From a virus, in IMG/VR virus record IMGVR_UViG_3300006046_000002, positions 1 through 64,000 of that record: DNA of 64,000 nt. One strand, given 5' to 3'. The stretch's first letter is position 1. The number at the start of each line of letters is the position of its first letter. Below, one piece after another: positions 18,437-49,842 of this stretch. A program made the position numbers and the translations under genes. Below the pieces are notes generated by a model, which did no database searches, was not told the DNA's origin, and saw only the letters and a program-made list of their open reading frames with translations.

Positions 18437-18466
18437 CGTACGATTACCCTTCACCTGGAGTTGACG

Positions 18467-26856: not shown

Positions 26857-27390
26857 CTACTTCCGCTTTGCAGCCTTCTTCGCGACCTTCTTGCCGCCGC
26901 GCTTGGCCGGAGTCTTCTTGGCCGCGCGCTTCGCACCCTTCTTGGCCGCGCCCTTGCGCCCACGCTTCGGCGCATCGTCCTCGTCCTCATCTTCATCCTC
27001 ATCCTCATCGTCGTCCGAATCCTCGTCCTCGTCTTCATCGTCCGAGTCTTCGTCGTCGTCTTCATCCTCGTCTTCGTCTTCGTCTTCGTCGTCCTCGGAG
27101 TCCTCGTCGTCCGAGTCTTCCTCCTCGTCGTCGTCCTCGTCGGAGTCATCCTCGTCCGCGTCCTCCTCCTCTTCCTCATCATCCTCATCCTCGTCCTTGC
27201 CCTTGGCCTTGCTCTTCTTTCCGCCCTTCACATCCGGGACATCGAGCTCGAACTCGAGCGACTCTGGCGCTTTCTTGAACATCCCCTTCGGAACCCAGAC
27301 CTTGATGAGGATGCCATCCTCGGTCCGAATGCCGAACGCGTGAGACTTGGGCGCCGTCTTCTCGAAGTCGAGCGTTTCCTGGATCTTCAT
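26857..27390 (-). CDS. Tripartite protein: 65-aa N-domain, 74-residue poly-Glu/Asp tract, 38-residue histone-H1-like Lys/Ala tail
   Basis: GGAGAAG lies upstream of the ATG. The sequence ...KGGKKSKAKGK + DEDEDDEEEEEDADEDD...EDEDEDD + APKRGRKGAAKKGAKRAAKKTPAKRGGKKVAKKAAKRK was read directly from the translation. Confidence 0.6.
   Translation of the reverse strand: MKIQETLDFEKTAPKSHAFGIRTEDGILIKVWVPKGMFKKAPESLEFELDVPDVKGGKKSKAKGKDEDEDDEEEEEDADEDDSDEDDDEEEDSDDEDSEDDEDEDEDEDEDDDEDSDDEDEDEDSDDDEDEDEDEDEDDAPKRGRKGAAKKGAKRAAKKTPAKRGGKKVAKKAAKRK
26974..27195 (-). repeat. Low-complexity GAR/GAY codon tract encoding poly-Glu/Asp
   Basis: The + strand shows ctcgtc/ttcatc/gtcctc runs. It generates antisense poly-Ser and Leu/Val-rich pseudo-ORFs. 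Confidence 0.85.
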
Positions 27391-30958: not shown

Positions 30959-30975
30959 CTCCTGTAGTAGGGTAG
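30959..30975 (-). promoter_or_regulatory. Promoter-like motif copy 1
   Basis: The - strand reads CTACCCTACTACAGGAG. It abuts the stop of 30976-31113 and lies 10 nt before ATG 30948. Confidence 0.55.
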
Positions 30976-31113
30976 TCACTTCTTTTTCCGTGGCTTGCGT
31001 TTCTTGTACGATGCAACGCGCTTCTTCACGATCTCTTCCGCGCGTTCGCCTCGCCAGAACGGAGCGTCCTTGTTGAACAACCCATTCTGGCGAAGCGGAT
31101 GCACGCGCTTCAT
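30976..31113 (-). CDS. Small basic protein (45 aa, below ORF-track cutoff)
   Basis: Hand translation gives MKRVHPLRQNGLFNKDAPFWRGERAEEIVKKRVASYKKRKPRKKK. ATGA overlap with the upstream stop. Confidence 0.4.
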   Translation of the reverse strand: MKRVHPLRQNGLFNKDAPFWRGERAEEIVKKRVASYKKRKPRKKK

Positions 31114-31460
31114 GCGGTCCTCGTCCGCTTCCGTCGGGCGTCCTTCCACATCTGCGTCGCCTTCCGGTACTCCGCTTGCAGAAGTTCCAAGGAGTAGTTG
31201 GCCGAGACTTCCTCGATCGACATCGGTCGTGCATCTGGTCCCTTGATCCGGTAGAACGTGCGCTTCCGTGTCAGCACCAGATCTTCAGCAATCTTGAACC
31301 CACGGAGTGGACGCGCACGATCAGACTGCGTGATGTGCGGAAACGCTGTCTCAATGTTGCGCACTCCGTTGTAGTTGATCTGGCTCAGCCACCGCGCCAA
31401 CGCGACGCGCGGTGGCGTTGGCAGTGGCCGTCCCGGTGGCCGTGCTTTGCTGGCAGTCAT
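31110..31460 (-). CDS. Hypothetical protein (116 aa)
   Basis: ORF taken from MTASKARPPGR. No obvious SD, so the start is uncertain. Confidence 0.5.
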   Translation of the reverse strand: MTASKARPPGRPLPTPPRVALARWLSQINYNGVRNIETAFPHITQSDRARPLRGFKIAEDLVLTRKRTFYRIKGPDARPMSIEEVSANYSLELLQAEYRKATQMWKDARRKRTRTA

Positions 31461-31598
31461 ATATAAGGTAGTGAGTGGTGGCGGGGCGGGTTTGGCGGGT
31501 ACCCTAGCCCCAAAAACCGTCCTCCAGTGCCTCCAGGATGGCTCGTGGAGCACCAAAAGGCACCTAGGGCGGCAAGTACCCGCCCAAAGGCCCGTTTT

Positions 31599-31632
31599 GG
31601 CTCCTACGGGCCTTTTAGGAGCCCTTTTTGTG
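31599..31632 (+). terminator. Rho-independent-terminator-like hairpin oriented for + strand transcripts
   Basis: GGCTCCTA (31599-31606) pairs with TAGGAGCC (31616-31623), with a 9-nt loop, followed by CTTTTTG. On the - strand the hairpin is followed by AAAAC, so the T-run is + specific even though all neighbouring genes are on the - strand. Confidence 0.45.
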
Positions 31633-31699
31633 CTACCCTACCCGCTACCCTGCCTAGGCGCTGTTTGGGGCACTGGCGGGCACCTAGGGACAGGGCGCA

Positions 31700-31716
31700 C
31701 CTACCCGTAGGGTAGG
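31700..31716. other. Palindrome CCTACCC GTA GGGTAGG built from the promoter-motif 5' half
   Basis: Perfect 7+3+7 inverted repeat. The - strand reads CCCTACCCTACGGGTAGG, so the first 10 nt match the promoter-like consensus CCTACCCTAC. Confidence 0.7.
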
Positions 31717-31733
31717 GCGGGCTCCGGCGTGCC

Positions 31734-32783
31734 CTACTCGGCGCCGCCGGACTTGGGCCTGAGCAGCTTGACCCACTCGTTCTGCACGTACAGACGGACG
31801 GCACCCCGCGATCCGCCTTTCGCGATGAACTCGTCGACCGTCATGCCTTTCTTCAGCTTGTCCCAGACCTTGGCCTTGGCCGATCCGGCACGACGCGGGT
31901 TCTCCTGGATCAGGCGCTTGATGATGTAGTCGTTGTGTTCCTTGGTGATCCGGTCCGTGTTCGCGCTGGACTTCTTCTGCTTCTTGCTGGACTTCTCCTG
32001 CTTCTTCTGCTTCTGCTGCTTCTTGTTCTTCTTGGTCGGCTTCTCGTCCTGCTCTGCCTTCTGCTGCTTGTTCTTCTTGCCAGACTTCTTGGTCTTGGTA
32101 GCCACATCAGCCTCCGTGAGTTCAACCTTCAGGATGAGTGAGAACAACCGAGCGACCCGTTCCTCGAACGGTTCGTCCTTGATCGGCTTCCCGCCGAAGT
32201 ACCGTGTCACCTCCCTGAGTAGTTTCGGATCCTTGCGTCCGTGCTGCACAAGCCATGGAGCAATCCAGTTGTGGACATCATCAGGATGTGCCTTGCGTGC
32301 CCGAGCGATCTTCAGTCGAATGCGTTCCCAACCGATCAGGCCGTCCTCAGCGCGTGATGTCACCAAGAACGTTGGACCTTTGGATGGCTTCAGCTTGTCG
32401 GGCTCACGCTGCGACATCCATCCCATCTTCAACTTCTCTGGCTTGCCATACTGCACCAGTAGCTCATCAGCACGATGCGTGATCGGACTGACCCAGTCCC
32501 GATAGATCGTTGCCTGATTGAGTAGCCGCACAATGCTGCCAGCATCAGCGATCACCGGCTTCTCATCCGCCTTGTCCGGCACGATGACCATCGGTTGCAT
32601 GAGCGCTGTGTACGGATTCTTCGGCGGCTCAGGCATCCTCATTGCTTTCCGAATGTGCTTGTCCAACATCTTCGGGTTGCCGATTCTCAGCTTCGGCGTA
32701 GCTTTCCCTTTACGGTGCGCAGACTTGTCAGCCTTCCGTGCACTCTTGTCACGCTTGGCAGTAGTGCTTTCACGTTTACCCAT
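31734..32783 (-). CDS. Hypothetical protein with internal Lys/Gln-rich tract
   Basis: Start at MGKRESTT with GGAG 6 nt upstream. Contains KTKKSGKKNKQQKAEQDEKPTKKNKKQQKQKKQEKSSKKQKK. Overlaps the upstream gene by 97 nt. Confidence 0.55.
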   Translation of the reverse strand: MGKRESTTAKRDKSARKADKSAHRKGKATPKLRIGNPKMLDKHIRKAMRMPEPPKNPYTALMQPMVIVPDKADEKPVIADAGSIVRLLNQATIYRDWVSPITHRADELLVQYGKPEKLKMGWMSQREPDKLKPSKGPTFLVTSRAEDGLIGWERIRLKIARARKAHPDDVHNWIAPWLVQHGRKDPKLLREVTRYFGGKPIKDEPFEERVARLFSLILKVELTEADVATKTKKSGKKNKQQKAEQDEKPTKKNKKQQKQKKQEKSSKKQKKSSANTDRITKEHNDYIIKRLIQENPRRAGSAKAKVWDKLKKGMTVDEFIAKGGSRGAVRLYVQNEWVKLLRPKSGGAE

Positions 32784-33691
32784 TGTCCGCTCCATTGGTT
32801 GATCTGCTGTTGGAACCACTTGAGTGTGAGCCACGGACTGCCTTGCTCCTGCCACATCGTGCGGAGTTCATCCCGCGTGTCCAGCATGCCTGGATCATCG
32901 ACTGGGATAGCGCCATGGAATTCATCACGTACCAGACGCTTCGCAAACTTGTCCCACATCTTGTCGAACGATGGTGGCACTTCAGGCCACAGAATCCGTG
33001 TGGCTCCGGCACGCACACGCCGATTGCGCACCAGTGCTGCGCGCAACGACTTGGACAACTCGGGCGTACCGATAATCAGCAGATCGCTCCATGCGCCACG
33101 GAACAGACGCTTGGCTTCAAACTGCGCTTGCCGTTTCTTGTCGCTCTGCAGCGGACCGAGATAGAGATATCCCGGCTTCCGCTTATCCAGAATGTTCCGT
33201 CCCAGAGCGATGTACTTCGTGGTCTTCGGGTTGAACACGAACGCCTTCTGTCGGGCCTTGGTCTTCCGCTTTTTGCGATCGATCACTGGTGTGTACCGCT
33301 TGAGCTCAGCCTTGAAGCTGGACTTCCGATGCTGAAACTGTGGCGCGTGAAATCGCCACGCCTGATCAGCACTCTTCGTGCGCTTCAGTGCTTCGCCTAG
33401 ATCGACCACCATGACCTGAGCCTTCTTGTCGATCCCGAGCTTGCGTCGGATCTTGGCAAAGAACCGACCCATCGTTTGCACGCGCCGCAAATTTCGCCGA
33501 CGCCGGAATCCTCCCAGCTTCCACTCGCCGACTGACGGATCATCCTTCCGGTGGACCCAAACGTACGCGACCCAGACCCTCTCGAGATCAACGTCGCGGT
33601 CGGAGTCGGCGAACTTTCGCCTCTCCTGTTCAAGTTTCTGCGCCTCGAGCCTCCGATAGTATTCGGACTCGAGTTCTTCTGCGCTCAGCAT
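32687..33691 (-). CDS. Hypothetical protein (334 aa)
   Basis: The ATG lies 7 nt downstream of promoter-like motif copy 2. Basic, with no recognised motif. Confidence 0.55.
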   Translation of the reverse strand: MLSAEELESEYYRRLEAQKLEQERRKFADSDRDVDLERVWVAYVWVHRKDDPSVGEWKLGGFRRRRNLRRVQTMGRFFAKIRRKLGIDKKAQVMVVDLGEALKRTKSADQAWRFHAPQFQHRKSSFKAELKRYTPVIDRKKRKTKARQKAFVFNPKTTKYIALGRNILDKRKPGYLYLGPLQSDKKRQAQFEAKRLFRGAWSDLLIIGTPELSKSLRAALVRNRRVRAGATRILWPEVPPSFDKMWDKFAKRLVRDEFHGAIPVDDPGMLDTRDELRTMWQEQGSPWLTLKWFQQQINQWSGQWVNVKALLPSVTRVHGRLTSLRTVKGKLRRS

Positions 33692-33698
33692 TGAGCGA

Positions 33699-33717
33699 CT
33701 CCTATAATAGGGTAGGT
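33699..33717 (-). promoter_or_regulatory. Promoter-like motif copy 2
   Basis: The - strand reads ACCTACCCTATTATAGGAG, 7 nt before ATG 33691. Confidence 0.55.
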
Positions 33718-33721
33718 CGTG

Positions 33722-34342
33722 CTACTTCCGTTTCTTTGCTCGGTGTGCCTTCTTGCTCTTCTTGCGCTTGACTTGCGTGGCGTCAGCTTTCTTCTGTCGC
33801 TTCAGCCATGTGGCATGTGCTGATGATTCATACTTCTCAAGCCGCACCTCTGGTGTCGTCCGACGAACGCGCTTCTTCGCCGGAACAATACGGAGATCGC
33901 ACTTGCGGTCGCGCTCAGCCAGAACGTACCGATGTTTCGGGCTGACGAACACGACGACCATCCCCGTGCGGCCGGGCTCGAGCTCCGTGGTCCACCCTTT
34001 CTTCCCTGATGGCACATGCTTGCGCTCGAGATGCTGCTTCGTGACCCTGATCTCACTGCGCAACGTGTTCCGATCCCGCGGAGTCTTGGCCTTGTCGAAC
34101 AGTTTGCGCAACTCGACCAACTTCGCTTCGTGCATCCGCAGCGACACGGCGCTCGGTATCCAGTGGATCTGCTTGCCCTGAATGAGCGGCACCTTTGCAT
34201 CACGCTGTGCCCACTCTTTTGCTTTCTGCTCCTTCGTCGGTTTGGTCACAACGATGGACTCTGCACGTTTGCCGCACCGAGGACACGCAGTCAGGTGTGG
34301 CGCAACGTAGCATCGACACTTCTTGCATCGGCGTGGGAACAT
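33722..34342 (-). CDS. Zinc-ribbon protein with basic C-terminal tail
   Basis: N-terminal CKKCRCYVAPHLTACPRCG. C-terminal KRQKKADATQVKRKKSKKAHRAKKRK. Confidence 0.55.
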   Translation of the reverse strand: MFPRRCKKCRCYVAPHLTACPRCGKRAESIVVTKPTKEQKAKEWAQRDAKVPLIQGKQIHWIPSAVSLRMHEAKLVELRKLFDKAKTPRDRNTLRSEIRVTKQHLERKHVPSGKKGWTTELEPGRTGMVVVFVSPKHRYVLAERDRKCDLRIVPAKKRVRRTTPEVRLEKYESSAHATWLKRQKKADATQVKRKKSKKAHRAKKRK

Positions 34343-34527
34343 TAGAGAGCTGACTCAGTGCGCCGATCCCGATTCTGCCACGGATCCTGCTTGATCAAAC
34401 TCCGTGGCTTCAGCTCCTCACGATGCTTGAGCACAGCGCACGCATCGGTATGGATGTGCCGCCGCTTGCAGTCTGGGCACGCACCATCAGTGCCACGCTC
34501 TGCCGGAAGAATGCGCTTGTCTCTCAT
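34342..34527 (-). CDS. Small Cys/His-containing protein (61 aa)
   Basis: Start at MRDKR via ATGA overlap with the 34524-34670 stop. Contains CPDCKRRHIHTDAC. Confidence 0.4.
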   Translation of the reverse strand: MRDKRILPAERGTDGACPDCKRRHIHTDACAVLKHREELKPRSLIKQDPWQNRDRRTESAL

Positions 34528-34670
34528 GGCTTCTTCTCCTTCTTGCCGTGACAGCCACACCCGATCTCCGTGCACGGCCCTGACTTCGCGACATGGAGAT
34601 GCTTGCACTTGCCGGACGGACACGGACGGGTCTGTCCCTTGAGCCACTTCACCGGAGTGATGGTCTTCAT
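34524..34670 (-). CDS. Small Cys-rich protein (48 aa, below ORF-track cutoff)
   Basis: Hand translation gives MKTITPVKWLKGQTRPCPSGKCKHLHVAKSGPCTEIGCGCHGKKEKKP. Confidence 0.4.
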   Translation of the reverse strand: MKTITPVKWLKGQTRPCPSGKCKHLHVAKSGPCTEIGCGCHGKKEKKP

Positions 34671-34673
34671 GGC

Positions 34674-34946
34674 TCAGGCCTCCTGCTGATCAGGCGTCCA
34701 GTGGAACTGCGGCACCTGATCGTACTGAAACTGCCGCTGAATGCGACCGAGCGTGCGGCGCTCACGGCGCGTCACGCCGAGCTGAGCGAGAATCTTGTTG
34801 GCGCGCTTGGCGGCATTGTGTGCCTTGACGTTCTTGATGCGACGGACGATTGCGATGTCAGGCCACGACTCTGCCGCAATTTCACGTGACAGCTTGACAT
34901 CTTCCAGCTTGACGACATCGGAGGGAGTGATCGTCTGCTTTTCCAT
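34674..34946 (-). CDS. Hypothetical protein (90 aa)
   Basis: The ATG lies 8 nt downstream of promoter-like motif copy 3. Confidence 0.5.
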   Translation of the reverse strand: MEKQTITPSDVVKLEDVKLSREIAAESWPDIAIVRRIKNVKAHNAAKRANKILAQLGVTRRERRTLGRIQRQFQYDQVPQFHWTPDQQEA

Positions 34947-34954
34947 GAGAGGAT

Positions 34955-34973
34955 CTCCTGTAGTAGGGTAGGT
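34955..34973 (-). promoter_or_regulatory. Promoter-like motif copy 3
   Basis: The - strand reads ACCTACCCTACTACAGGAG. It overlaps the TAA stop of the upstream gene and lies 8 nt before ATG 34946. Confidence 0.55.
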
Positions 34974-35230
34974 TAGTCGTTCAGGAATCGCTTGATCTTC
35001 TTGTGCTTCTTGGCTTTCTTGGTCTGCACCTTCACCTTCTCACGCCGAAGTCTGCTGTGCTTCTCTTCAATCAGGTAGGCCAGTGCCTCACCGATCGCGT
35101 CCAACTTATCCGCCATGATCCGGAGTCCGAGATTGTTGATGTCGTTGTCCATGTGGATGACGGACCGCGACGGATCGATCGGCATCCGCAACCGATTGAC
35201 CAACGTCTCCTGCCGATTGACTTGATCCAT
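34973..35230 (-). CDS. Hypothetical protein with Lys-rich tail (85 aa)
   Basis: ORF ending ...KVKVQTKKAKKHKKIKRFLND. Confidence 0.5.
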   Translation of the reverse strand: MDQVNRQETLVNRLRMPIDPSRSVIHMDNDINNLGLRIMADKLDAIGEALAYLIEEKHSRLRREKVKVQTKKAKKHKKIKRFLND

Positions 35231-35233
35231 TGC

Positions 35234-35542
35234 TCAGCCCTCCGACGGCAGACCGTAGGCGTGCTTGCTACCAACCTTGCGAACGATCACGATCCGGTGC
35301 TGACGGAGCAACAGATCCATAACAGCCTTGATGTCCTGAGGAATCCGGCCGAACAGCGCATCCAGCTGGAAGTCGGTGACCAGCTCACCCTTCCGGTAGG
35401 CGCGCTCCATCATCATGAGCACTTCATTGTAGATCAGGGTGCGACTGACGCAGCCGCGTCCGTGGCAGAAGTTGCACTCCACATTGTCCTGAGGACCTGA
35501 TCCGGTACCACGGCACCACGGGCACTCGATGCGTGCGTTCAT
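35234..35542 (-). CDS. DnaJ-type zinc-finger protein (CxxCxGxG x2) with C-terminal winged-helix-like part
   Basis: Start at MNARIECPWCRGTGSG...CNFCHGRGCV, 10 nt downstream of motif copy 4. Confidence 0.55.
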   Translation of the reverse strand: MNARIECPWCRGTGSGPQDNVECNFCHGRGCVSRTLIYNEVLMMMERAYRKGELVTDFQLDALFGRIPQDIKAVMDLLLRQHRIVIVRKVGSKHAYGLPSEG

Positions 35543-35552
35543 TGTTCTCTCT

Positions 35553-35570
35553 CTCCTGTAGTAGGGTAGG
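35553..35570 (-). promoter_or_regulatory. Promoter-like motif copy 4
   Basis: The - strand reads CCTACCCTACTACAGGAG. It abuts the TAG stop at 35571 and lies 10 nt before ATG 35542. Confidence 0.55.
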
Positions 35571-35786
35571 CTAGGCGCGCTGACCGAGCAGCGCACGCTG
35601 ATACTTGCGCAATGCGATGACACTCTTGGCGATGACGCGCGTCGAAATGCCGAGCGTTTCCGACAACGTGATGACCGATATGCTTTCGGAAATCGTCTTC
35701 AGCGTCATGACTTCTGGGTCATCGTTGAACGCGATGAACTGGATGCCCCGATTCAGCGCTTGCTCAACCGTCTTGACCTTGTCCAT
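35571..35786 (-). CDS. Small helix-turn-helix protein (71 aa), sigma-region-4-like
   Basis: Start at MDKVKTVEQ, 8 nt after motif copy 5. The segment TLSETLGISTRVIAKSVIALRKYQ looks like an HTH. Confidence 0.5.
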   Translation of the reverse strand: MDKVKTVEQALNRGIQFIAFNDDPEVMTLKTISESISVITLSETLGISTRVIAKSVIALRKYQRALLGQRA

Positions 35787-35794
35787 GGTTCTGT

Positions 35795-35813
35795 CTCCTG
35801 TAGTAGGGTAGGT
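35795..35813 (-). promoter_or_regulatory. Promoter-like motif copy 5
   Basis: The - strand reads ACCTACCCTACTACAGGAG. It overlaps the upstream TAA stop and lies 8 nt before ATG 35786. Confidence 0.55.
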
Positions 35814-36031
35814 TAGGAAAAACGGAGATTCACGTACGGAGCCATGCCTTCCTTGTACCACTCCGGGAACTGAACCGCGTACACCCCGAAGCCGCGAACA
35901 TCGCGCCACCCGATTACGTAGAAGTATCCGAGTTTGGCGAGACGCTGAGCAGTTTTGTCCATCTGGTTGTACGTGTCCAACATGAACTCACGACGGCGCG
36001 GTGCGGCCGTATGGATTCGGCAAGCGGACAT
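35813..36031 (-). CDS. Hypothetical protein (72 aa)
   Basis: The ATG lies 8 nt downstream of motif copy 6. Confidence 0.5.
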   Translation of the reverse strand: MSACRIHTAAPRRREFMLDTYNQMDKTAQRLAKLGYFYVIGWRDVRGFGVYAVQFPEWYKEGMAPYVNLRFS

Positions 36032-36039
36032 TGTGGTGC

Positions 36040-36058
36040 CTCCTATAGTAGGGTAAGG
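36040..36058 (-). promoter_or_regulatory. Promoter-like motif copy 6
   Basis: The - strand reads CCTTACCCTACTATAGGAG(G), 8 nt before ATG 36031. Confidence 0.55.
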
Positions 36059-36067
36059 TGGAACGGC

Positions 36068-36169
36068 TTAGATCAGGTGGGACAGCACGAAGGTCAACGC
36101 GCCCAACGCCATGCCGACGATGACGGCAACACTGGCGGGCCGCTGCTGACCGAGCGGATCCTTGTACAC
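36068..36169 (-). CDS. Possible 33-aa single-pass membrane peptide
   Basis: GTG with GGAG 7 nt upstream. Translation is (M)YKDPLGQQRPASVAVIVGMALGALTFVLSHLI. Very tentative. Confidence 0.25.
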   Translation of the reverse strand: MYKDPLGQQRPASVAVIVGMALGALTFVLSHLI

Positions 36170-36230
36170 GAGACGTCTCCAGAAAGAGTGGTGCGGGGCC
36201 GACCGAAGTGCCGACCCCGCGCTCCGTTGC

Positions 36231-37796
36231 TTAGGACTTCTTGTTGGTCCAGCTGAAGTCGATGTCGAGGTCCTCGTCGCCCACGACCTTCGGCTCCTCC
36301 GGCATCCGGATCGTGTTGATCGGCTGCTCCCGCTTGCGCAGCTCCTCGATCCGCTTGCGCTCGGCCTCGAGCCGCACCTTCTCCTCCGCCTCGCGCCGCT
36401 CTGCCTCGATCTTCCGGAGCCGATCGGCGATGACCTTGACGTCCGTGAGCGGCACCCACGGCGCGTGAATGCGGATCGTGCTGGCGCGGCTCGGCGACAG
36501 ATACAACATGTCGCCCCGACCGAGCAGTCCCTCAGCACCCTTCATGTGGAGGATGACACGCGAGTCCTGCATCGACGTCACCTTGAACGCCATGCGTGCC
36601 GGGAAGTTCACCTTGATCCGGCCTGACAGGACGTCGACCGACGGACGCTGAGTTGCCGCCACCATGTGGATGCCAGTGGCGCGGGCGATCTGGCTGATTT
36701 CCGCGATGAGCCGAGTGAACTCCTTGCGGTCCTGCATCATCAGGTCACCCAACTCGTCGATCACGCAGACAATGCGCGGAAGCTTGGCCTCTGACTTCGA
36801 GCCCTCGACCACTCCGTTGTACTCCTTGATATCCCGGACTCCCTTGTACGACAGGAGGTTCAGGCGGCGCCGCATTTCACGCACCAGCTTTTCCAACATC
36901 TCCTTGGCGCGGTGCGGCGACGTGACCATCGCTTCCTTCATGTGCGGGATGCCGTTGTAGTGCATCAGCTCCACACCCTTCGGGTCAATCATGTAGAACT
37001 CCAACTCCTCCGGCGTGCACACCGTCAGCAGCGAGCTGATGATGCAGTTCAGGCTGACCGACTTGCCCGCGCCAGTGCTGCCAGCGATCAGCAGATGCGG
37101 CATCGTTGCGAGGTCGTCGATGATCGGCTCACCGAACGGATCCGTGCCCAGATTCAGCGGGAGCTCCATACCTTTGGCCTTGGCCGACCGCACCGACTGA
37201 AGCGACGCACGGAACCCAACGTTCTGGCGCTCGCTGCTTTCGTTGGAGATCTCGATACCCATGACGTCCTTGCCAGCGATGCGCCGCACCATCACGGCAT
37301 CAGCGCTGAGCGCCAGTGCCAAGTCCTCCTGCAGATTGATGAGCCGCCGGATGCGCGTGCTCTTGGCGGGCTGAAACTCGTACAACGTGATGACGGGTCC
37401 CTTGCGCACGGCCATCACCTTTCCGGGGCACCCGAAGAACGAGGCGCGCTCCTCGATGGTCTCCTTGGCCTCGCGCTGATCGGGCGTCATTTTCGTCGTG
37501 ACATCCTCTCCGGTCTCGAGATCGCGGGACACGACCGTCAGGCCTTTCGGCGCCACGAACTTCGGCATGCGCTCGGCCTTGCTCGACTTCTTGAGCTGAC
37601 CCTTGACCTTGACCTTGCTCGCCTTGCGGACTTCTGCCTTTGTCTTTTTCACTGGCTTCTTCTCCGTGGACTTGGTGGACTTCGCCTTCCCCGAACCGCC
37701 ACACTTCAGGCACTTCTTCATCGACACGCGGCCAGCCTTCTTGATGAGCGTGACGCCCATGCCAGCGCAGAACGTGCAATCGGTGGTCTTCTTCAT
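36231..37796 (-). CDS. Soluble FtsK/SpoIIIE-family ATPase with N-terminal zinc finger and Lys-rich linker
   Basis: Walker A LLIAGSTGAGKSVSLN, Walker B VCVIDELGDLMM, then ATQRPSVDVL. No N-terminal membrane helices. The N-terminus is CTFCAGMG...CLKCGGSG followed by KAKSTKSTEKKPVKKTK. Confidence 0.85.
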   Translation of the reverse strand: MKKTTDCTFCAGMGVTLIKKAGRVSMKKCLKCGGSGKAKSTKSTEKKPVKKTKAEVRKASKVKVKGQLKKSSKAERMPKFVAPKGLTVVSRDLETGEDVTTKMTPDQREAKETIEERASFFGCPGKVMAVRKGPVITLYEFQPAKSTRIRRLINLQEDLALALSADAVMVRRIAGKDVMGIEISNESSERQNVGFRASLQSVRSAKAKGMELPLNLGTDPFGEPIIDDLATMPHLLIAGSTGAGKSVSLNCIISSLLTVCTPEELEFYMIDPKGVELMHYNGIPHMKEAMVTSPHRAKEMLEKLVREMRRRLNLLSYKGVRDIKEYNGVVEGSKSEAKLPRIVCVIDELGDLMMQDRKEFTRLIAEISQIARATGIHMVAATQRPSVDVLSGRIKVNFPARMAFKVTSMQDSRVILHMKGAEGLLGRGDMLYLSPSRASTIRIHAPWVPLTDVKVIADRLRKIEAERREAEEKVRLEAERKRIEELRKREQPINTIRMPEEPKVVGDEDLDIDFSWTNKKS

Positions 37797-37806
37797 TGTT
37801 GTCGAG

Positions 37807-37825
37807 CTCCTATAGTAGGGTAGGT
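37807..37825 (-). promoter_or_regulatory. Promoter-like motif copy 7
   Basis: The - strand reads ACCTACCCTACTATAGGAG, 10 nt before the FtsK-like ATG 37796 and 1 nt after the upstream stop. Confidence 0.55.
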
Positions 37826-37826
37826 G

Positions 37827-38231
37827 TTACTTGACGTTGGGGAACAGCGAGAACATATCGACTGCCTTGATCGTCTTGCACTTGACCAGATGACCGAACG
37901 CTTTGTTCTGGACCACATCGAGCGAGTCCACGTAGAACTCGCGGCCCGTCGGAGAATTCAGCCTGAACAACCTGACGCCCATCTTGTATGACCTGAACGC
38001 ATGCTTGGCTCTGCGCTGCTGATCCGTCGGGTGATCGTAGTACGGTTTCAGCGACGTGAGCGCCACCAGCCGCATGCCATCGTCGTCCAACTTGTCCGGA
38101 TCATCAACCCAAACGATCACGCGGGTCCGGCTCTGCATTGCCTGGAACACCGCGACCAACCACTTCTCTTTCCGACCCTTGCGCACCTTGAGCAGCACGC
38201 GGTCGCCTGATTTGAAGAGTTGCCGTGTCAT
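37827..38231 (-). CDS. Hypothetical protein (134 aa)
   Basis: Start at MTRQLFKSGDRV via ATGA overlap with the upstream stop. Confidence 0.5.
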   Translation of the reverse strand: MTRQLFKSGDRVLLKVRKGRKEKWLVAVFQAMQSRTRVIVWVDDPDKLDDDGMRLVALTSLKPYYDHPTDQQRRAKHAFRSYKMGVRLFRLNSPTGREFYVDSLDVVQNKAFGHLVKCKTIKAVDMFSLFPNVK

Positions 38232-38437
38232 GACCACACCACAACCTTGCCCTGACCAACGACGTTGCGCACGATGCGGAACGCCTTGACTACTCCGTCC
38301 CACGCGCCGAGCCACACAAGGTTCTCGGCGTGCGCTGCATCCTGCGACGAGCGGATCGTACCAAAGTCGACCCAGGAACCGTCCGGACGCTGCGACTGCA
38401 GAATGTCGTACGCTTGGAACTCATACGTTGCGGCCAT
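38228..38437 (-). CDS. Hypothetical protein (69 aa)
   Basis: The ATG lies 6 nt downstream of motif copy 8. Confidence 0.5.
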   Translation of the reverse strand: MAATYEFQAYDILQSQRPDGSWVDFGTIRSSQDAAHAENLVWLGAWDGVVKAFRIVRNVVGQGKVVVWS

Positions 38438-38443
38438 TGTTGC

Positions 38444-38462
38444 CTCCTATAGTAGGGTAGGT
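38444..38462 (-). promoter_or_regulatory. Promoter-like motif copy 8
   Basis: The - strand reads ACCTACCCTACTATAGGAG(G), 6 nt before ATG 38437. Confidence 0.55.
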
Positions 38463-38523
38463 GCCGGGACTTGGGACCCGGCGTGTGCATTAGAGCGCGG
38501 TGCCGTCACGCGCTCCCCTCTGC
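38463..38523. repeat. Double-hairpin element, copy A
   Basis: Hairpin 1: GCCGGG (38463-38468), loop ACTTGGGA, CCCGGC (38477-38482). Spacer GTGTGCATTA. Hairpin 2: GAGCGCG (38493-38499), N9, CGCGCTC (38509-38515). Then CCCCTCTGC. The element fills the whole gap between the stop at 38525 and motif copy 8. Confidence 0.7.
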
Positions 38524-38524
38524 A

Positions 38525-38869
38525 TCAGCGCTTGCGGGATTTCGGTGGCAGGACCTGACCGCACTCAGCACAGTGCGGCTTCTTGGCCTCATGATCCTGC
38601 TCCATTCGCTGGATCACCTTGGAGCCCTCGATCTCGAGACGCGCCAACGTGTCTTCCATATCCTGCTCCAGCTTGCGGCGCTGAGCCGAGAGCGCCGCGA
38701 GTTGCTTGCGTAGCGCCGCCGGAATGGCGACGGGCAGGTCCTCGTACCGGAAGTTGTCCTCGACGCTGAAGTCCTGAATGTCCATCAGGGTCTGCTCTGC
38801 TTCGTCATAACCTTGCCGTCCGAGGTTCTCAGTGAAGGTGAGCAGAAACTGCGCGGTGATTTTCGACAT
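38525..38869 (-). CDS. Hypothetical coiled-coil protein with C-terminal CxxC (114 aa)
   Basis: Start taken at MSKITAQF, 7 nt after motif copy 9. The upstream in-frame extension crosses the repeat element and is rejected as coding. Confidence 0.5.
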   Translation of the reverse strand: MSKITAQFLLTFTENLGRQGYDEAEQTLMDIQDFSVEDNFRYEDLPVAIPAALRKQLAALSAQRRKLEQDMEDTLARLEIEGSKVIQRMEQDHEAKKPHCAECGQVLPPKSRKR

Positions 38870-38876
38870 GTTGCTT

Positions 38877-38894
38877 CTCCTGTAATAGGGTATG
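38877..38894 (-). promoter_or_regulatory. Promoter-like motif copy 9 (most divergent)
   Basis: The - strand reads CATACCCTATTACAGGAG, 7 nt before ATG 38869. Confidence 0.45.
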
Positions 38895-38963
38895 CGTTCG
38901 GACTTGGGACCGAACGTGTGCATTAGCGGCGCGCCACAATGGTTCAGCGCGTCGCCCCTCTGC
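38895..38963. repeat. Double-hairpin element, copy B
   Basis: Hairpin 1: CGTTCGG (38895-38901), identical loop ACTTGGGA, CCGAACG (38910-38916). Same spacer GTGTGCATTA. Hairpin 2: GCGGCGCGC (38926-38934) pairs with GCGCGTCGC (38947-38955) with one G-T pair. Then CCCCTCTGC. Confidence 0.7.
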
Positions 38964-39382
38964 TTTGCCAATTTCAATTGGTCTTGCCAACGTTTGCATT
39001 CCCGTTTCATGTTCACCAGCATCGGGCTCTCCGACTCTCTGGCCTTTTCCGGCAGCGCCACTCGCCATGCACTCTTGCCGCGCTTCGAGGTTCAGCGGCT
39101 TGTGCAACCTTGCTTGCACCTTTGCCAGTGTCCGCCTGTCACGCGGTCTTGGGTCTCGGTGTGGCACATGCATCCGTTGGTATCAGCGGTTTCAGGTTTC
39201 CGCCGTGAGAGATTTCTGTGGTAGCTTTGCGTTGGCGCTCACCGGATCCGCGCAAGCGGGACGGTTCAGCGCCGAAGGCCAATCTCTATTTGTCAAGTAG
39301 CGTTGGGCACTTCCGCCATTTTCCGCCCAACCCTTGCGGCCGCAGGGCTTCAGCCCAGCCGTCCAAGCCGCTATGTCCCGAG

Positions 39383-39412
39383 CAACCAACCAACCAAACC
39401 AACCATCCAACC
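39383..39412. repeat. CCAAC-type short direct repeats (- strand GGTTGG runs)
   Basis: The + strand reads caaccaaccaaccaaaccaaccatccaacc. The - strand reads GGTTGGATGGTTGGTTTGGTTGGTTGGTTG. Confidence 0.75.
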
Positions 39413-39445
39413 TGCCTACAATATGGTATAGGTGACAACCCCCTA

Positions 39446-39484
39446 GCAAGGGGGGCTAAGTTGTTCAATTTGAAGCACTTACGG
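39446..39484. repeat. Conserved ~40-nt element, copy X (partner at 53811-53850)
   Basis: The - strand reads CCGTAAGTGC N9 AACAACTTAGCC N4 TTGC. It lies at the upstream end of the long leader preceding the 30-39 kb gene block. Confidence 0.65.
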
Positions 39485-39560
39485 CCCCTAGCTAGGGCAA
39501 AATGGGGCTTTCGGACCGTTTCGGAGATCAACAGCACATTTGTGTGGTGAGGGGCGCACG

Positions 39561-39779
39561 CTAGATAGCACGTCTGCGCGATTTTCTGCCGCGCTTTGAT
39601 CGTGCTGTGCGGACACGTTCAGCTGACACAGTCAGTCGACGCTTCTCCGCATCATAGTGCGATTCGCCGTAGTCTCCGGCAAGCATGTTATTCCGCGCGA
39701 CCTGATACGAGAGCTTCAGGTATGACGCGACTTGCACTGGAGTCCAGCGCTCTTCGGTGGGAGGCGTTTCATCCGCCAT
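39561..39779 (-). CDS. Small HTH DNA-binding protein (excisionase/MerR-like fold)
   Basis: Start at MADETPPTEERWTPVQVASYLKLSYQVARNNML. Basic tail RSKRGRKSRRRAI. Last gene of the 39.5-53.8 kb leftward block. Confidence 0.45.
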   Translation of the reverse strand: MADETPPTEERWTPVQVASYLKLSYQVARNNMLAGDYGESHYDAEKRRLTVSAERVRTARSKRGRKSRRRAI

Positions 39780-41034
39780 GTTTTTGCTCCATCTTTTCGA
39801 TGTAGCGATCGCGCGCATCTCGGATCTCACGGGTGAGACGTCCAGTCGCCCGATCGTTGTAGATTCCGCATGGTCTATCCTCCATCAAATCAATGAACCA
39901 TTGACAGACACGGTCTGCATCGTGGTACTTCTCGAGCATCTCCCGACCATTCATGTTGATCCGTCGTGCTTTCTTCGCGGGAAGATTGATCGCGTGATTG
40001 ATCAGTCTGGCCAACTCCTTTGGCGAGACATCAACCGGGAACTCGAGATGGGTCTCTCCGGCTTCGAACATCGTAAGATCATTCTGCTCGGCCATACTTT
40101 CAGCAACCGCGAGCGGAATGCATCCGTTGTTGATGGCCTCCAGGATCGAGTAGTTGAAATGATTGCCGAGTGCCGCGTGCACTTTCGACCACGAGGTGTC
40201 CACCATGACCCGACTGGATTGGTACAATCCGCGCAATAATCGTGGTGAAACGAACCCACGATAGTCCATGCCACTCTTCTCAGCACGACGCCAGATACCC
40301 TGATAGCGTGGCTTGCACTTATCGATGCTCCGCATGTATCGACCTTCAATGCCATCGCCAGCGATTACGTTGCGAACACCATAGGGAAGATTCGGAATAG
40401 CCCGCACGACAAGATCCATGCGCTTCCATGCTTTCCACACATGTGCGCTCACGAATCGTCGTTGACGATCAGCCCACTGCGGTTGACGACGGCGATTCAG
40501 GGGCACGATCGGGCATCCCATGAACGCAATGCGCGATGGGAACATCTTGAGCGCGTTGTATCCTGCTTCCTGCGCGGCCGTGATGCCGACAATCTTATCA
40601 GCCACGGTGACCATATACGGATAGAGATCACGGAAGTGCGCGTCGTGCGTCGCGATGATTTGCGGCGGATCAATGTCGTAGAGCTTCTTCCAGTTTCCAT
40701 CCGCATCCCACTTCGGATTGGGGATCTGGTGAATGACGAGATCAAATTGCCGGGCGTAGCGACGCCACTTCTTCCGCTGCGCGTGATCGCCGTAGCTGAA
40801 GACCTGAACGCCGTACCATCCTTGTGTGACGTGAGCCTTCGCACCGATCGTGCTGTCGTACGCTCCCTGGACCGGAGTCTCTGACTTGATGAAGTACGGA
40901 TCACGCGTCGTATTGCGTAGCACGACGAACTCACATTCATGCCCGAGTCGCCTGAAGGCGCGATGCATGATCTCAACATAGTTGACGATGCCACCATAGT
41001 CCATCAAGTCAAACACCGTCTGCAGAATTCTCAT
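39769..41034 (-). CDS. GT4-family (GT-B) glycosyltransferase
   Basis: ATGA overlap start at MRILQTVFDL. The C-terminal domain has ...GNHFNYSILEAINNGCIPLAV, resembling the E..G..P motif of glycos_transf_1 enzymes. Confidence 0.7.
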   Translation of the reverse strand: MRILQTVFDLMDYGGIVNYVEIMHRAFRRLGHECEFVVLRNTTRDPYFIKSETPVQGAYDSTIGAKAHVTQGWYGVQVFSYGDHAQRKKWRRYARQFDLVIHQIPNPKWDADGNWKKLYDIDPPQIIATHDAHFRDLYPYMVTVADKIVGITAAQEAGYNALKMFPSRIAFMGCPIVPLNRRRQPQWADRQRRFVSAHVWKAWKRMDLVVRAIPNLPYGVRNVIAGDGIEGRYMRSIDKCKPRYQGIWRRAEKSGMDYRGFVSPRLLRGLYQSSRVMVDTSWSKVHAALGNHFNYSILEAINNGCIPLAVAESMAEQNDLTMFEAGETHLEFPVDVSPKELARLINHAINLPAKKARRINMNGREMLEKYHDADRVCQWFIDLMEDRPCGIYNDRATGRLTREIRDARDRYIEKMEQKHGG

Positions 41035-42188
41035 GACTTGACCCATTTCGATGTGCAACGAATCTTGTCGTGGTTGACACGGTGCTCATTCGTTCTGACC
41101 GTTCTGAGAATCTCGTGAATCAATCCGGACTCAAGCGTGATCGGCTTGAGACCGAGTGACAGGAACTGCTTGTTCTCCACGATCAGTTCATTCTCTCCTG
41201 CCTCGTTTCGTGGATTCTCGTACGCCGTGATCTGTGCTCCCGTCAGTGCAGCGACCATCACGGCGAGATCAAGCACACGATGTGTCTCGGTCATCTGATT
41301 GAAGATCTTCACTCGCTCACCGCGCTTCGGAGGATTCTCAATCGCGAGCCGGATGCATTCGACAGAATTCTGGATATGAATGAACGCGCGTGTCTGTCCT
41401 CCGGTGCCGTGCACTGTCAGCGGATGACCAATCGCCCCCTCAACGAGGAATCGATTGAGGACCGTGCCATAGTCGCCATCGTAATCGAACCGATTTACGA
41501 GTGCCGGATGCAGATTCGTCTCCGTCGTGTTCGTTCCCCAGATGATGCCCTGGTGCAGATCAGTGATGCGAAGTCGATCGTTCTTCGCATAGTACGCGAA
41601 CATCTCTGCATCGAGCACCTTCGTCATGTGATACACACTGCCCGGATTCGGCGGATACCTGAATGTCATCGGTGTATCATCGTGCAATCCGCGCATCGTC
41701 GTGTATCCTTCCGGCAATGCTTCACCCGCTGTTCCGTATCCATACACGCCCATCGTCCCTAGATGGACGAGATGAATATCGAGACCCGACTCGACGATGA
41801 CCGCGAGCAGATTATGCGTGGCATTGACATTGTTGCTCACGGTCTGCATCTTGTGCATCCATGACTTCATTGAGTATGGAGCCGCACGAATCTCAGCAAA
41901 ATGAATAATGACGTCAGGTCGCATGTACTTGATCAACGCGAGCAACTCCATCGCCTGACACGCAACATCGAGCTGATAGAAGTACATGAACTTCTTCGTC
42001 AGCGCTTGCCATGTCGCGATGCGTTCTTTGAGAGGCGAAATTGGCGTGAGCGACTGAATGTCGAGTCGTTCATCAATCCGGCGGCGCTCGAAGTTATCGA
42101 CAATCGTGACGTCATGTCCGTGTGCGGAGAGATGCAGTGCCGTTGGCCATCCGCAGAATCCGTCGCCACCGAGAATGAGAATCTTCAT
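41031..42188 (-). CDS. SQD1/Agl3-family SDR, UDP-sulfoquinovose synthase-like
   Basis: From memory of plant SQD1, colinear similarity along the whole length: ILGGDGFCGWPTALHLS, RRRIDERLDIQSLTPISPLKERIATWQ, HFAEIRAAPYSM, LGTMGVYGY (catalytic Thr context), SVYHMTK (Tyr-His...Lys), DYDGDYGTVLNRFLVEGAIGHPLTVHGTGGQTRAFIHI. Confidence 0.8.
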   Translation of the reverse strand: MKILILGGDGFCGWPTALHLSAHGHDVTIVDNFERRRIDERLDIQSLTPISPLKERIATWQALTKKFMYFYQLDVACQAMELLALIKYMRPDVIIHFAEIRAAPYSMKSWMHKMQTVSNNVNATHNLLAVIVESGLDIHLVHLGTMGVYGYGTAGEALPEGYTTMRGLHDDTPMTFRYPPNPGSVYHMTKVLDAEMFAYYAKNDRLRITDLHQGIIWGTNTTETNLHPALVNRFDYDGDYGTVLNRFLVEGAIGHPLTVHGTGGQTRAFIHIQNSVECIRLAIENPPKRGERVKIFNQMTETHRVLDLAVMVAALTGAQITAYENPRNEAGENELIVENKQFLSLGLKPITLESGLIHEILRTVRTNEHRVNHDKIRCTSKWVKS

Positions 42189-42195
42189 TGAGTGA

Positions 42196-42990
42196 TCAAG
42201 TAGATGGGTGAGACTGATACCCGTCATGGCGGCGATGACGGAAGCGGGGAATCCCTTTCTCATTCGCTTCTCCGTGAAATGTTCCGTATCCCGGAAACTC
42301 AGCGAGGAGTTGCTGCATTCCTAATTTCCATCGTTTCTTCCCCTCACGATTGACGGTATTCTTCATCCCGTCGATCTTGTTCATGCCGATGGCATTGACT
42401 CGACCAACTGCACCATCCAATCGCCGATGCGCGCATGACCGATAGATGTCTTCATAGCAGACGATCTGCTTCGGCAACACGAGACCAGATTTGAGGGTAC
42501 GAAACATCTGCGCCGCGCCATGAATCAATCCGTATGATCGACTGTATCCGCCGCCGCGCAACCAATCGAGACGCGAGGTGTTCGAAAATCCAACGAGCGA
42601 AACTTTCTGTTGATGCATGCATGCACGCGCCATCTCCATGACTTTCTCGAGCGATGGCTTTCCGGCGCGTGAGACGAAAAAGTCCGGCCGACAATCATCG
42701 TCAAGGCGGAAGGCATACTTGAATCCTTGCTTTCGCGCATAGTCATAGCAGAACCGGACCTGATGCACGAGACCAGACTTTCCCTTGACGATGTGAATCG
42801 CCGTGTCGCCGAACCGATGGACATTCTTCTTCAGCCATCGCTTGTGCTCGAGATACAGACTGGGATCAGCGATGACGAACACCGGAACTGCGAGGGGGAA
42901 TTGCTTTCGGAACGACATCAGCGTATCGAGCGGTGGAGAACGCTTCGTTGGAATGACGATGCACACATTGTGCAGAGACATGCGCATCAT
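42196..42990 (-). CDS. Putative GT-A-fold glycosyltransferase-like protein
   Basis: N-terminal VCIVIPTKR...VFVIAD and FRLDDDCRP (DxD-like) suggest a nucleotide-diphospho-sugar transferase fold. Weak call. Confidence 0.4.
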   Translation of the reverse strand: MMRMSLHNVCIVIPTKRSPPLDTLMSFRKQFPLAVPVFVIADPSLYLEHKRWLKKNVHRFGDTAIHIVKGKSGLVHQVRFCYDYARKQGFKYAFRLDDDCRPDFFVSRAGKPSLEKVMEMARACMHQQKVSLVGFSNTSRLDWLRGGGYSRSYGLIHGAAQMFRTLKSGLVLPKQIVCYEDIYRSCAHRRLDGAVGRVNAIGMNKIDGMKNTVNREGKKRWKLGMQQLLAEFPGYGTFHGEANEKGIPRFRHRRHDGYQSHPST

Positions 42991-44994: not shown

Positions 44995-45131
44995 CGCTCG
45001 ATCTTCTTCATTTCGCCCTGCAGACACTGTCGACACATCGCGTCCTTTTCGATCTTCGCGAGCATCACGTGTCCAGCTTCGTACGTACGAGTCTGTCCGC
45101 AATGTGTGCAGAAATATTGCGTGATCTCCAT
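44991..45131 (-). CDS. Zinc-ribbon mini-protein (46 aa, below ORF-track cutoff)
   Basis: Hand translation gives MEITQYFCTHCGQTRTYEAGHVMLAKIEKDAMCRQCLQGEMKKIER (CxxC...CxxC). ATGA coupling to the next gene. Confidence 0.4.
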   Translation of the reverse strand: MEITQYFCTHCGQTRTYEAGHVMLAKIEKDAMCRQCLQGEMKKIER

Positions 45132-45138
45132 GATCGAC

Positions 45139-49797: not shown

Positions 49798-49842
49798 GTA
49801 TCCCTCGATGTGCATGGCGATGAGTCGTCATCAAGCATTTCT

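Follow-up and report, generated by a model that had tools for sequence, protein, structure and literature searches.

A T7-promoter-like repeat in an uncultured soil phage as a candidate start-associated mRNA cassette beside predicted twister ribozymes

What does a short, nearly invariant repeat do when it resembles a T7-type promoter and the genome that carries it appears to have no polymerase to read it? The question is raised by a 64,000-nucleotide (nt) stretch of viral DNA (positions 1 to 64,000 of IMG/VR record IMGVR_UViG_3300006046_000002; hereafter the window, by which we mean the whole 64 kb). Nine copies of a 19-nt motif lie on its minus strand between positions 30959 and 38895, each ending in a Shine-Dalgarno (SD) sequence shortly before a start codon. 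An earlier note, made from the letters of the sequence, had likened the motif to the promoters of single-subunit RNA polymerases (RNAPs) of the T7/T3 kind, and had offered as explanations a host RNAP redirected by a small phage factor, an unrecognized RNAP fold, or a signal acting in RNA.

Comparison with related phages, together with the RNA elements that surround the motif, leads us to favor an mRNA-level, start-associated cassette, that is, an extended ribosome-binding site recognized by a trans factor. We give this reading about an even chance of being right. The evidence is good that the element is part of the RNA and linked to initiation; which factor recognizes its upstream part, and whether it activates or represses, we can only infer. 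Of the options raised earlier, a signal at the RNA level is the best fit, because the presence of ribozymes and of a structured leader shows the motif to lie within longer transcripts.

Results

The motif array

We scanned the 64 kb with the pattern ACCTACCCTACTAYAGGAG, using shuffled sequences as the control for chance. Nine matches were recovered, all on the minus strand and with zero to three mismatches to the 19-mer (0.00 expected from the shuffles). These are the nine positions reported before, with the small correction that the last copy ends at 38895 and not at 38894. No tenth copy was found anywhere in the window at up to three mismatches. The consensus of the nine is (CC)TACCCTAYTAYAGGAG, and the 16-nt core TACCCTAYTAYAGGAG is exact in 9/9 copies. 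All are confined to a block of small genes at 30.9-38.9 kb, where eight of the nine lie in an operon bounded by the regions at 38.9-39.6 kb and 31.46-31.73 kb, and the remaining one belongs to the operon that follows, three genes in. No copy heads the structural (plus strand) or replication operons.

Copy 1 (GCATACCCTATTACAGGAG, 38877-38895) is followed after 7 nt by the ATG (38869) of a 114-amino-acid (aa) open reading frame (ORF), and copy 2 (38444-38462) after 6 nt by that of a 69-aa ORF (38437). Copy 3 (37807-37825) stands 10 nt before the ATG of an FtsK/SpoIIIE-like gene (36231-37796), copy 4 (36040-36058) 8 nt before a 72-aa ORF (ATG at 36031), and copy 8 (33699-33717) 7 nt before the gene for a 334-aa basic core protein (ATG at 33691). 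Other copies overlap the upstream stop codon: a TAA in copies 5 (35795-35813; 8 nt to the ATG at 35786 of a 71-aa ORF) and 7 (34955-34973; 8 nt to the ATG at 34946 of a 90-aa ORF), a TAG in copy 6 (35553-35571; 10 nt to the ATG at 35542 of a 102-aa zinc-ribbon ORF), and a TGA in copy 9 (30959-30977; 5 or 10 nt to the ATG of a 73-aa ORF), which is the one in the next operon.

Overall, the end of GGAG is 5-10 nt from an ATG in 9/9 copies, in line with what the earlier note had described. Its statement that each copy abuts or overlaps the stop codon of the gene upstream holds for 7/9 (overlapped, or 0-9 nt away). It fails for the copies at 38877 and 38444, which have no adjoining gene; what had been taken there for gaps are Twister-P5 ribozymes lying directly 5' of the motif (see below). 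Where a gene of the block has no motif, it overlaps the preceding gene or directly adjoins it and uses an internal SD. Given that SD-like sequences occur upstream of 46/78 phage genes, SD use is real for this phage.

The conserved 18-mer (the core plus the preceding CC) is largely unpaired in structure prediction. A hairpin that sequesters the SD was considered and rejected, as the only stem possible is a 3-4-bp CCUA/UAGG pairing that the C variant breaks. Also rejected was a reading of the reverse complement (GGGTAGG) as a site similar to the FtsK orienting polar sequences (KOPS), because the FtsK-like protein has no gamma domain match and the copies are not genome-wide. Depletion of CCCTA is accounted for by dinucleotide composition. 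No complementary (antisense) copy of the motif was found in the genome, and a literature search for the motif string gave no match. Separately, a bipartite look-alike (TACCCT-N6-GGAG-N6-ATG) occurs at 18445-18460 (plus strand), before a 96-aa gene of the lysis region; this fits chance (~0.16 expected).

The motif in related phages

The earlier note had named conservation in related phages as a test of its proposal. Exact-pattern scans recovered the identical 18-mer, in multiple copies and altogether more than 60 contexts, from about 25 contigs of IMG/VR and soil metagenomes (GC 0.52-0.61). Lone matches in AT-rich contigs and unrelated metagenome-assembled genomes (MAGs) are attributed to chance, and a prophage and host scan of genome contigs gave only such singles. 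The relatives found via TerL do not carry the motif.

Window and relatives together provide 57 distinct contexts. In 56/57 a start codon lies 4-11 nt after GGAG (ATG in 50/56), and the motif is always co-oriented with the gene. The conserved block is 18 contiguous nt, from -2 to +16 (CC-TACCCTAYTAYAGGAG), after which A is preferred. There is no information upstream of the block in these contexts, neither a -35 element nor an AT-rich region at -17 to -13. In 25% of copies a C replaces a T within the TATA-like part.

Between relatives, whose FtsK-like proteins are 60-67% identical, the flanks of the motif have wholly diverged. The motif precedes the FtsK homolog in 10/12 relative loci that hold one, and most of the small ORFs that it precedes in the window have no homolog in relatives, where the motif is retained. 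(The core set with homologs in relatives comprises the FtsK-like protein and those of 61, 206, 334, 302/366, 116, and 45 aa.) With diverged flanks and exchangeable small ORFs, the motif thus behaves as a portable cassette. The 71-aa ORF (35571-35786) that had been put forward as a helix-turn-helix (HTH) factor gave no HTH match and has no homolog in relatives with an identical motif, and therefore cannot be a conserved partner.

More distant relatives were reached via the FtsK-like protein (contig L074) and a 302-aa core protein (L159, L160, and L161). L161 has the identical 18-mer and L159 keeps TACCCT-A..AY-AGGAG. In L074 there are ten copies of TACCCT-N4-6-AGGAG-N5-9-ATG with unrelated spacers (atca, gatc, tgac, gagac, accatt, and others). 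In L160 there are seven of ACCCT-N4-10-(T)AGGAGAA-N5-6-ATG, in which A or C precedes ACCCT and the first T is not kept (the box forms are AAACCCT, TCACCCT, and GCACCCT). Chance would produce 0.03-0.06 copies, far fewer than either array contains.

What the family shares is thus an ACCCU box joined by a flexible linker to a strong SD, and the CTATAGGAG that evokes T7 or T3 is one clade's frozen spacer, conserved only in the closest clade. A spacer that is free in both length and sequence does not suit a promoter of a single-subunit RNAP, and the idea of a T7/T3-type promoter without its polymerase finds no support here. Likewise, the 4-10-nt spacer and the lost first T of L160 do not suit a fixed distance between a -10 element and a transcription start. 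Either a host factor or a phage factor that co-evolves with the motif could account for the contrast between an 18-mer kept invariant in diverged phages and one relaxed in L074 and L160.

Twister ribozymes and a structured leader RNA

The copies at 38877 and 38444 have in common a 50-nt extended repeat, in which Rfam identifies two Twister-P5 ribozymes (model RF02684, gathering score 37.6), both on the minus strand. The first (38898-38964, 49.8 bits) ends 2-3 nt before copy 1. The second (38465-38524, 48.9 bits) begins right after the stop codon of the 114-aa ORF and ends 2-3 nt before copy 2. Eight further matches above the gathering score were found in relatives. Motif copies with a twister directly or a short way 5' of them occur in the window (two), L004, L010, L044, L061 (two), L074, and L159, and an alignment of eight of the ribozymes shows compensatory changes at seven base pairs of P1 and P4. 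Model score, core, and covariation all agree with the assignment of the two window elements as predicted Twister-P5 ribozymes. As a separate observation, the twister pair of L061 flanks two small genes.

We take a type-P5 twister to be cut after P1, at CU^AAUGC, which presumably places the cuts at U38925^A38924 in twister 1 and at U38492^A38491 in twister 2. After such a cut, the downstream mRNA would begin with a 5'-OH and the P4 hairpin, with the motif following after 3 nt. Cutting at both tandem twisters (38924 to 38492) would free a 433-nt mini-mRNA that carries the first motif copy and the 114-aa ORF, and its predicted 5'-OH and 2',3'-cyclic-phosphate ends could suit it to ligation or circularization by RtcB. 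A ribozyme works only if it is transcribed, so transcripts must enter these motif copies from upstream. Several copies in relatives that have no ribozyme are preceded instead by a GC hairpin without a U-tract, ending 2-5 nt upstream.

Farther upstream of twister 1 and copy 1 lies a structured leader RNA (38987-39296, minus strand, from UUGACAAAUA to GUGAAACGGGAAUGC). It is 265-310 nt long and conserved in five phages, across which 26/50 pairs of the predicted structure show compensatory double changes. No Rfam family matches the leader, which may represent a new phage RNA class; an anti-box was not found in it. Twister 1 would cut the leader off the mRNA. One of the leader helices starts immediately after UUGACAAAU, so that this box belongs to the RNA and is not a -35 element.

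A candidate sigma-70-like promoter for the leader and the motif operon, read by eye, is TTGCTA-N18-CATATT at 39420-39449 (minus strand), and its counterpart in L060 is TTGCGC-N18-TATACT. The -35 hexamer TTGCTA lies in the loop of a C6/G5 hairpin. A strict sigma-70 promoter scan of 30-40 kb scored none, including this candidate. The region around it (39370-39560, minus strand) also contains a palindrome, CCCTAGCTAGGG, an operator-like inverted repeat, GTAAGTGC..N..CACTTA(C), that is kept in relatives, and, shortly downstream of the promoter candidate, five GGTTGG repeats.

Genome, gene content, and the search for a polymerase

The TerL of the window was found on a 64,189-bp ENA contig, of which at most about 190 bp are absent from the window. 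The major capsid gene is split over the window ends (C-terminal part at 1-520, N-terminal part at 63200-64000, plus strand), which makes the source contig a complete, circularly permuted genome of ~64.1 kb. This bears out the earlier estimate that the window holds nearly the whole genome, with the break falling inside the capsid gene, and the missing sequence leaves no room for a hidden polymerase gene.

The phage is an uncultured, siphovirus-like member of a new soil phage family without a cultured relative. INPHARED contains no close relative (best portal identity ≤34%), and megablast gave no match. On the plus strand are genes for TerS, TerL, a portal-MuF fusion, a collagen-like protein, the tape measure, and tail proteins; on the minus strand are those for a family A DNA polymerase, primase-helicase, SNF2 helicase, ligase, Sak4, an exonuclease, and a thymidine-hypermodification cluster. 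Noncoding DNA makes up only ~5% of the genome and is concentrated in three control regions on the minus strand side, at 53.7-54.3, 38.9-39.6, and 31.46-31.73 kb.

Neither an RNAP subunit nor a sigma factor was found when about 65 ORFs were scanned against Pfam and PHROGs, and follow-up of the large ORFs is in keeping with the earlier observation that no phage RNAP is in sight. The same scans found no RegB or other RNase homolog, no integrase or repressor, and no match to an RNA-binding family. The suggestion of an unrecognized RNAP fold was not sustained, as the two large hypothetical proteins followed up could be resolved. The 715-aa ORF of the early block (47668-49815, minus strand) belongs to a beta-helix/Big_2 family by homolog search. 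For the first 1150 residues of the 1443-aa ORF, an AlphaFold 2 (AF2) model (predicted local distance difference test score, pLDDT, 72) is nearly all beta-strand. The best Foldseek matches to this model are the tail-tip proteins of lambda, T1, and Chi (E = 2e-14), with FN3 repeats, and on this structural evidence the protein is a lambda gpJ-like tail-tip protein. PDB sequence searches with these two ORFs found nothing relevant. The ORFs of at least 500 aa with a non-RNAP identity are TerL, the portal, the collagen-like protein, the tape measure, the gpJ-like tip, the fiber, PolA, the primase-helicase, SNF2, the FtsK-like protein, and the beta-helix protein; a 567-aa ORF of the structural block is the only one of that size without such an identity.

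The 715-aa ORF has hundreds of cellular homologs at 34-38% identity, mostly from Gemmatimonadaceae MAGs, and sequence evidence of this kind gives a weak hint of a Gemmatimonadota host. The one Gemmatimonadaceae MAG segment looked at has a GC content of 0.63 and few SDs. The host is probably not an actinobacterium.

Other features of the genome may be mentioned briefly. The cluster at 39769-47035 (minus strand) encodes a thymidine-hypermodification set (5-hydroxymethyldeoxyuridine DNA kinase, thymidylate-synthase-like enzyme, HD phosphohydrolase, glycosyltransferases, an NAD-dependent epimerase, and a DUF3310 protein); from this gene set, virion DNA is probably hypermodified. The collagen-like protein (874 aa, collagen-triple-helix repeats; 57142-59766, plus strand) lies between TerL and the portal and is split by gene callers in some sibling contigs. 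Long codon repeats of the GAY/GAR type (25357-25616 and 26942-27210) encode acidic Asp/Glu-rich tracts in two minus strand genes of the replication block.

Other control regions and partial copies

Within the motif operon, an 11-bp GC-rich hairpin follows the FtsK-like gene (36193-36220, minus strand); it may mark or stabilize an RNA end or act as a weak terminator. The motif and replication operons are separated by a highly structured intergenic region of 273 nt (31461-31733, minus strand; minimum free energy z-score -3.5), in place of which relatives have a structured region that is divergent in sequence. It contains the sole other TACCCTAC octamers, at 31707-31714 (minus strand) and 31634-31641 (plus strand), as an inverted pair. 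At its edge, the sequence CTACCTTATAT(AT)G, related to the motif box, runs into the ATG of the 116-aa gene without an SD (31460-31472, minus strand); the same is seen in L073 (~5915), L074 (~10600), and L161 (11423), and the start of this gene in L058 reads CTACCATATAGGAG-N6-ATG.

The divergent control region contains a partial motif, CCCTATAGGAG, at 54213-54223 (plus strand), 47 nt before the first plus strand (late) gene and without coupling to a ribosome-binding site; its significance is uncertain. A T-run, GCGTTTTTTGT, follows ~40 nt after it, just before the first plus strand ATG, and a palindrome, TCCCTATAGGGGGA, is located at 54112-54125 (plus strand).

Discussion

A start-associated mRNA cassette

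Under the reading we favor, the 19-mer would be the clade-specific, frozen form of a two-part element, namely an ACCCU box and an AGGAG(A) SD placed 4-10 nt downstream, and together these would form a portable translation-start cassette, or "start-associated sequence." The middle operon (~39.4 to 31.7 kb, minus strand) would be transcribed as a polycistronic RNA from one putative upstream promoter, and the transcript would pass through the ~300-nt leader, whose structure is supported by covariation. Twisters or plain GC hairpins directly 5' of some copies may then cut or cap the RNA and so leave the downstream cistron with a 5'-OH and a hairpin at its front. The SD of each copy would recruit the 30S subunit, and the upstream box would be read by a trans factor, which might be part of the ribosome, a protein of the host, or a conserved RNA-binding protein of the phage. 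The outcome would be autonomous and coordinately controllable initiation of selected genes, many of them clade-specific small ORFs. The motif is placed in RNA because the twisters and the covarying leader lie directly upstream of it. Also in favor are the fixed coupling to start codons, the lack of conservation farther upstream, the bipartite core with its flexible linker, the GC hairpins before other copies, the close packing of genes that have no motif, the use of SDs by this phage, and the precedent of Cluster K (see below).

Several observations weigh against this interpretation. The 3' tail of 16S rRNA has no complementarity able to explain the box; complementarity to h18 of 16S ("GUAGGGUG") and identity to the 790 loop were considered as well, and these we presume to be due to chance or geometrically implausible. 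No trans factor was identified in the genome scans. The conserved 302-aa core protein, modeled by AF2 with a pLDDT of 81, has no Foldseek match below E = 0.02, an uninformative result. The partial copy at 54213 is not coupled to an SD. In relative L033, a perfect copy (8657-8674) has no start codon, and its GGAG instead forms the 5' arm of a canonical intrinsic terminator (GGAGCC...GCUCC-U6) just before the primase gene. In the main clade, TACCCT is a legal TANNNT with the purine of AGGAG at the place of a start site, so that a promoter consisting of a -10 element only is geometrically possible. Finally, dense small ORFs that each have their own repeat resemble the promoter cassettes of T4-type phages.

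The L033 copy can be read in two ways, either as a factor site that overlaps a terminator, as in antitermination of the ribonucleic antiterminator (RAT) type, which is compatible with an RNA-binding factor, or as a promoter followed by an attenuator. In the same region (8500-8725), a second, degenerate copy occurs 147 nt upstream of the perfect 18-mer.

A more specific version of the start-associated cassette can be proposed, though with a low probability. The box and SD may be the operator of a dedicated RNA-binding factor that coordinately switches translation of exchangeable small genes, with twisters as interchangeable 5' modules and the L033 terminator also under its control. The factor would be either phage-encoded or a specialized ribosome component, and the 433-nt RNA excised by the twisters could be unusually stable or circularized by RtcB.

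Alternative explanations

The main rival is a phage promoter made of a -10 element only (CC-TACCCT as an extended -10), used by host RNAP together with an unrecognized small sigma-like or appropriator protein of the phage, as at T4 late promoters. We consider it unlikely, and equally so its corollary that transcription starts within AGGAG to give very short leaders beginning with the SD. It is retained because TACCCT is legal and is followed by a purine ~7 nt downstream in the main clade. The hexamer fits TANNNT, and the 4-6-nt spacer puts the AGGAG purine at that distance, within the ~6-8 nt expected of such a promoter, in the main clade, L159, and L074, whereas the AACCCT/CACCCT boxes of L160, with no T at -12 and a spacer of 4-10 nt, do not conform to a fixed distance between -10 and start. 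No sigma-70-like promoter scores in 30-40 kb, the small clade-specific ORFs each have a copy, and the L033 copy with its terminator has the look of a promoter-plus-attenuator unit, as does the partial copy that precedes the late operon (54213). However, a start inside AGGAG would truncate an SD that is strictly conserved and strictly spaced from the ATG, and the ribozymes and structured leader just upstream show that the read-through RNA is the functional transcript. Nor does this explanation sit well with the lack of a sigma-like protein in the ORF scans or of a copy heading the structural or replication operons.

Less probable still is that the motif is the site of a sequence-specific endoribonuclease, a phage RegB-like enzyme or a host one, that cuts at or near the SD as the trans counterpart of the cis-acting twisters. 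The element does lie in RNA, at cistron junctions and beside ribozymes and hairpins, and an 18-mer that is invariant and single-stranded could plausibly be where a nuclease cuts or a factor binds. Yet no RegB or RNase homolog is present among the scanned ORFs, such a site would be redundant where a twister directly adjoins, and the flexible spacer of L074 and L160 argues that the SD itself is selected.

We think it very improbable that the motif is a DNA operator for an elongation-blocking repressor, similar to the stoperators of Cluster A, or a mere recombination linker for shuffling gene cassettes. The sites are asymmetric, in one orientation, intergenic, and flanking variable small ORFs, and the TACCCTAC octamers form an inverted pair in the noncoding region at 31.6-31.7 kb. 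Such a role would not explain why the motif is coupled to the SD and keeps a fixed distance from the ATG, however; the scans detected no integrase or repressor, and a linker alone would not keep 18 nt invariant across phages whose FtsK-like proteins are 60-67% identical.

That the motif is a true promoter of the T7/T3/SP6 type, served by a cryptic single-subunit RNAP, is close to refuted: it has ACTATAGG(A)G in common with the T7 consensus and its ACCCT..ACTA.AGG.AG resembles T3, but the genome is complete, every ORF of at least 500 aa except the 567-aa one has a non-RNAP identity, the TATA-like part is C-substituted in a quarter of copies and lost in L074 and L160, and late genes have no copy.

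Significance and comparison with known systems

The locus joins two loose ends, the role of phage start-associated sequences (a question since 2011) and the purpose of genomic twister ribozymes. In these uncultured soil phages, an invariant candidate translation-start cassette is fused within 2-3 nt to predicted twisters at cistron junctions, downstream of a structured ~300-nt leader RNA not described before. Ribozyme adjacency makes the roles of both motif and twisters experimentally accessible. Should the operator version prove true, the locus would be a natural system that gives a biological role to bacterial and phage twisters and to elements of the start-associated kind. It is also a warning for genome scans, in that a T7-promoter-like repeat does not imply a missing polymerase.

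With the promoters of T7, T3, and SP6, the motif shares a contiguous block of ~18 nt that ends in ...CTATAGGAG and is repeated in one orientation before genes. Unlike them, it belongs to a phage without an RNAP gene, has no conservation at -17 to -13 and no late-gene copies, does not keep the TATA part in relatives, and holds GGAG at SD distance. Neither a cognate RNAP, nor a rigid ~23-bp consensus (-17 to +6, with TATA at -4 to -1), nor copies heading middle and late units were found.

Some DNA-level systems are also similar in layout. The promoter early stem-loop (PeSL) elements of T4-type phages are repeated cassettes of an early promoter and a stem-loop that flank small variable ORFs, and the stoperators of Cluster A mycobacteriophages are asymmetric, orientation-tied sites in tiny intergenic gaps. 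Both act on DNA, as promoter or repressor site, and unlike the motif they have no SD at a fixed distance from a start.

The RNase III sites of T7 early mRNA, and the processing of polycistrons that has been proposed for bacterial hammerhead and twister ribozymes (PMC6765202), likewise involve a structured element at cistron junctions that would cut the phage transcript and leave hairpin-capped ends beside the next ribosome-binding site. Here the cutter is a predicted self-cleaving twister and is present at only some junctions, and the repeated 18-mer is single-stranded and not an RNase III substrate. The same review describes the role of bacterial twisters as elusive, with polycistron processing proposed, and their linkage to phage genes as unexplained (PMC6765202).

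The closest parallel is the start-associated sequence (SAS) of Cluster K mycobacteriophages, a 13-bp asymmetric repeat that contains AGGAG and lies 3-9 bp before start codons; it has 11-19 copies in one orientation, in the non-structural arm only and before unrelated gene families, and an extra upstream element in about half of cases (PMC3203893; PMC11373665; PMC12699233). Its function is presumed to be translational (PMC3203893; PMC11373665). Both SAS and our motif are short, asymmetric, near-invariant AGGAG repeats a few nucleotides before starts that are mostly ATG. Each is present in about 10-19 copies per genome, all in the same orientation and with non-structural genes of unrelated families behind them; in both, the upstream stop codon is often inside or beside the repeat and a subset has a structured element just upstream. 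The sequences, however, are unrelated. Cluster K mycobacteriophages carry the SAS consensus, GGGATAGGAGCCC, along with an extended SAS (Pope et al. 2011, PMC3203893; PMC11373665; PMC12699233). This consensus of actinobacteriophages is not that of the motif, which is extended only 5' of the SD (the ACCCU box), whereas SAS is extended on both sides. The motif phages are of another, uncultured lineage, and their add-on is a twister or a plain hairpin, compared with an inverted repeat with a SigA-like promoter for SAS; moreover, the spacer between box and SD is flexible in the motif's distant relatives. The Adephagia paper speculated that a DUF3310 protein acts on SAS genes (PMC11373665). A DUF3310 protein is encoded here too (42987-43778), and as its gene sits in the DNA-modification cluster we treat it as a lead only. 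Given the different sequence, lineage, and upstream add-on, we regard the motif as an analog of SAS and not as a member of the Cluster K family: the element is new in its sequence, lineage, and twister coupling, with an anatomy already known from Cluster K.

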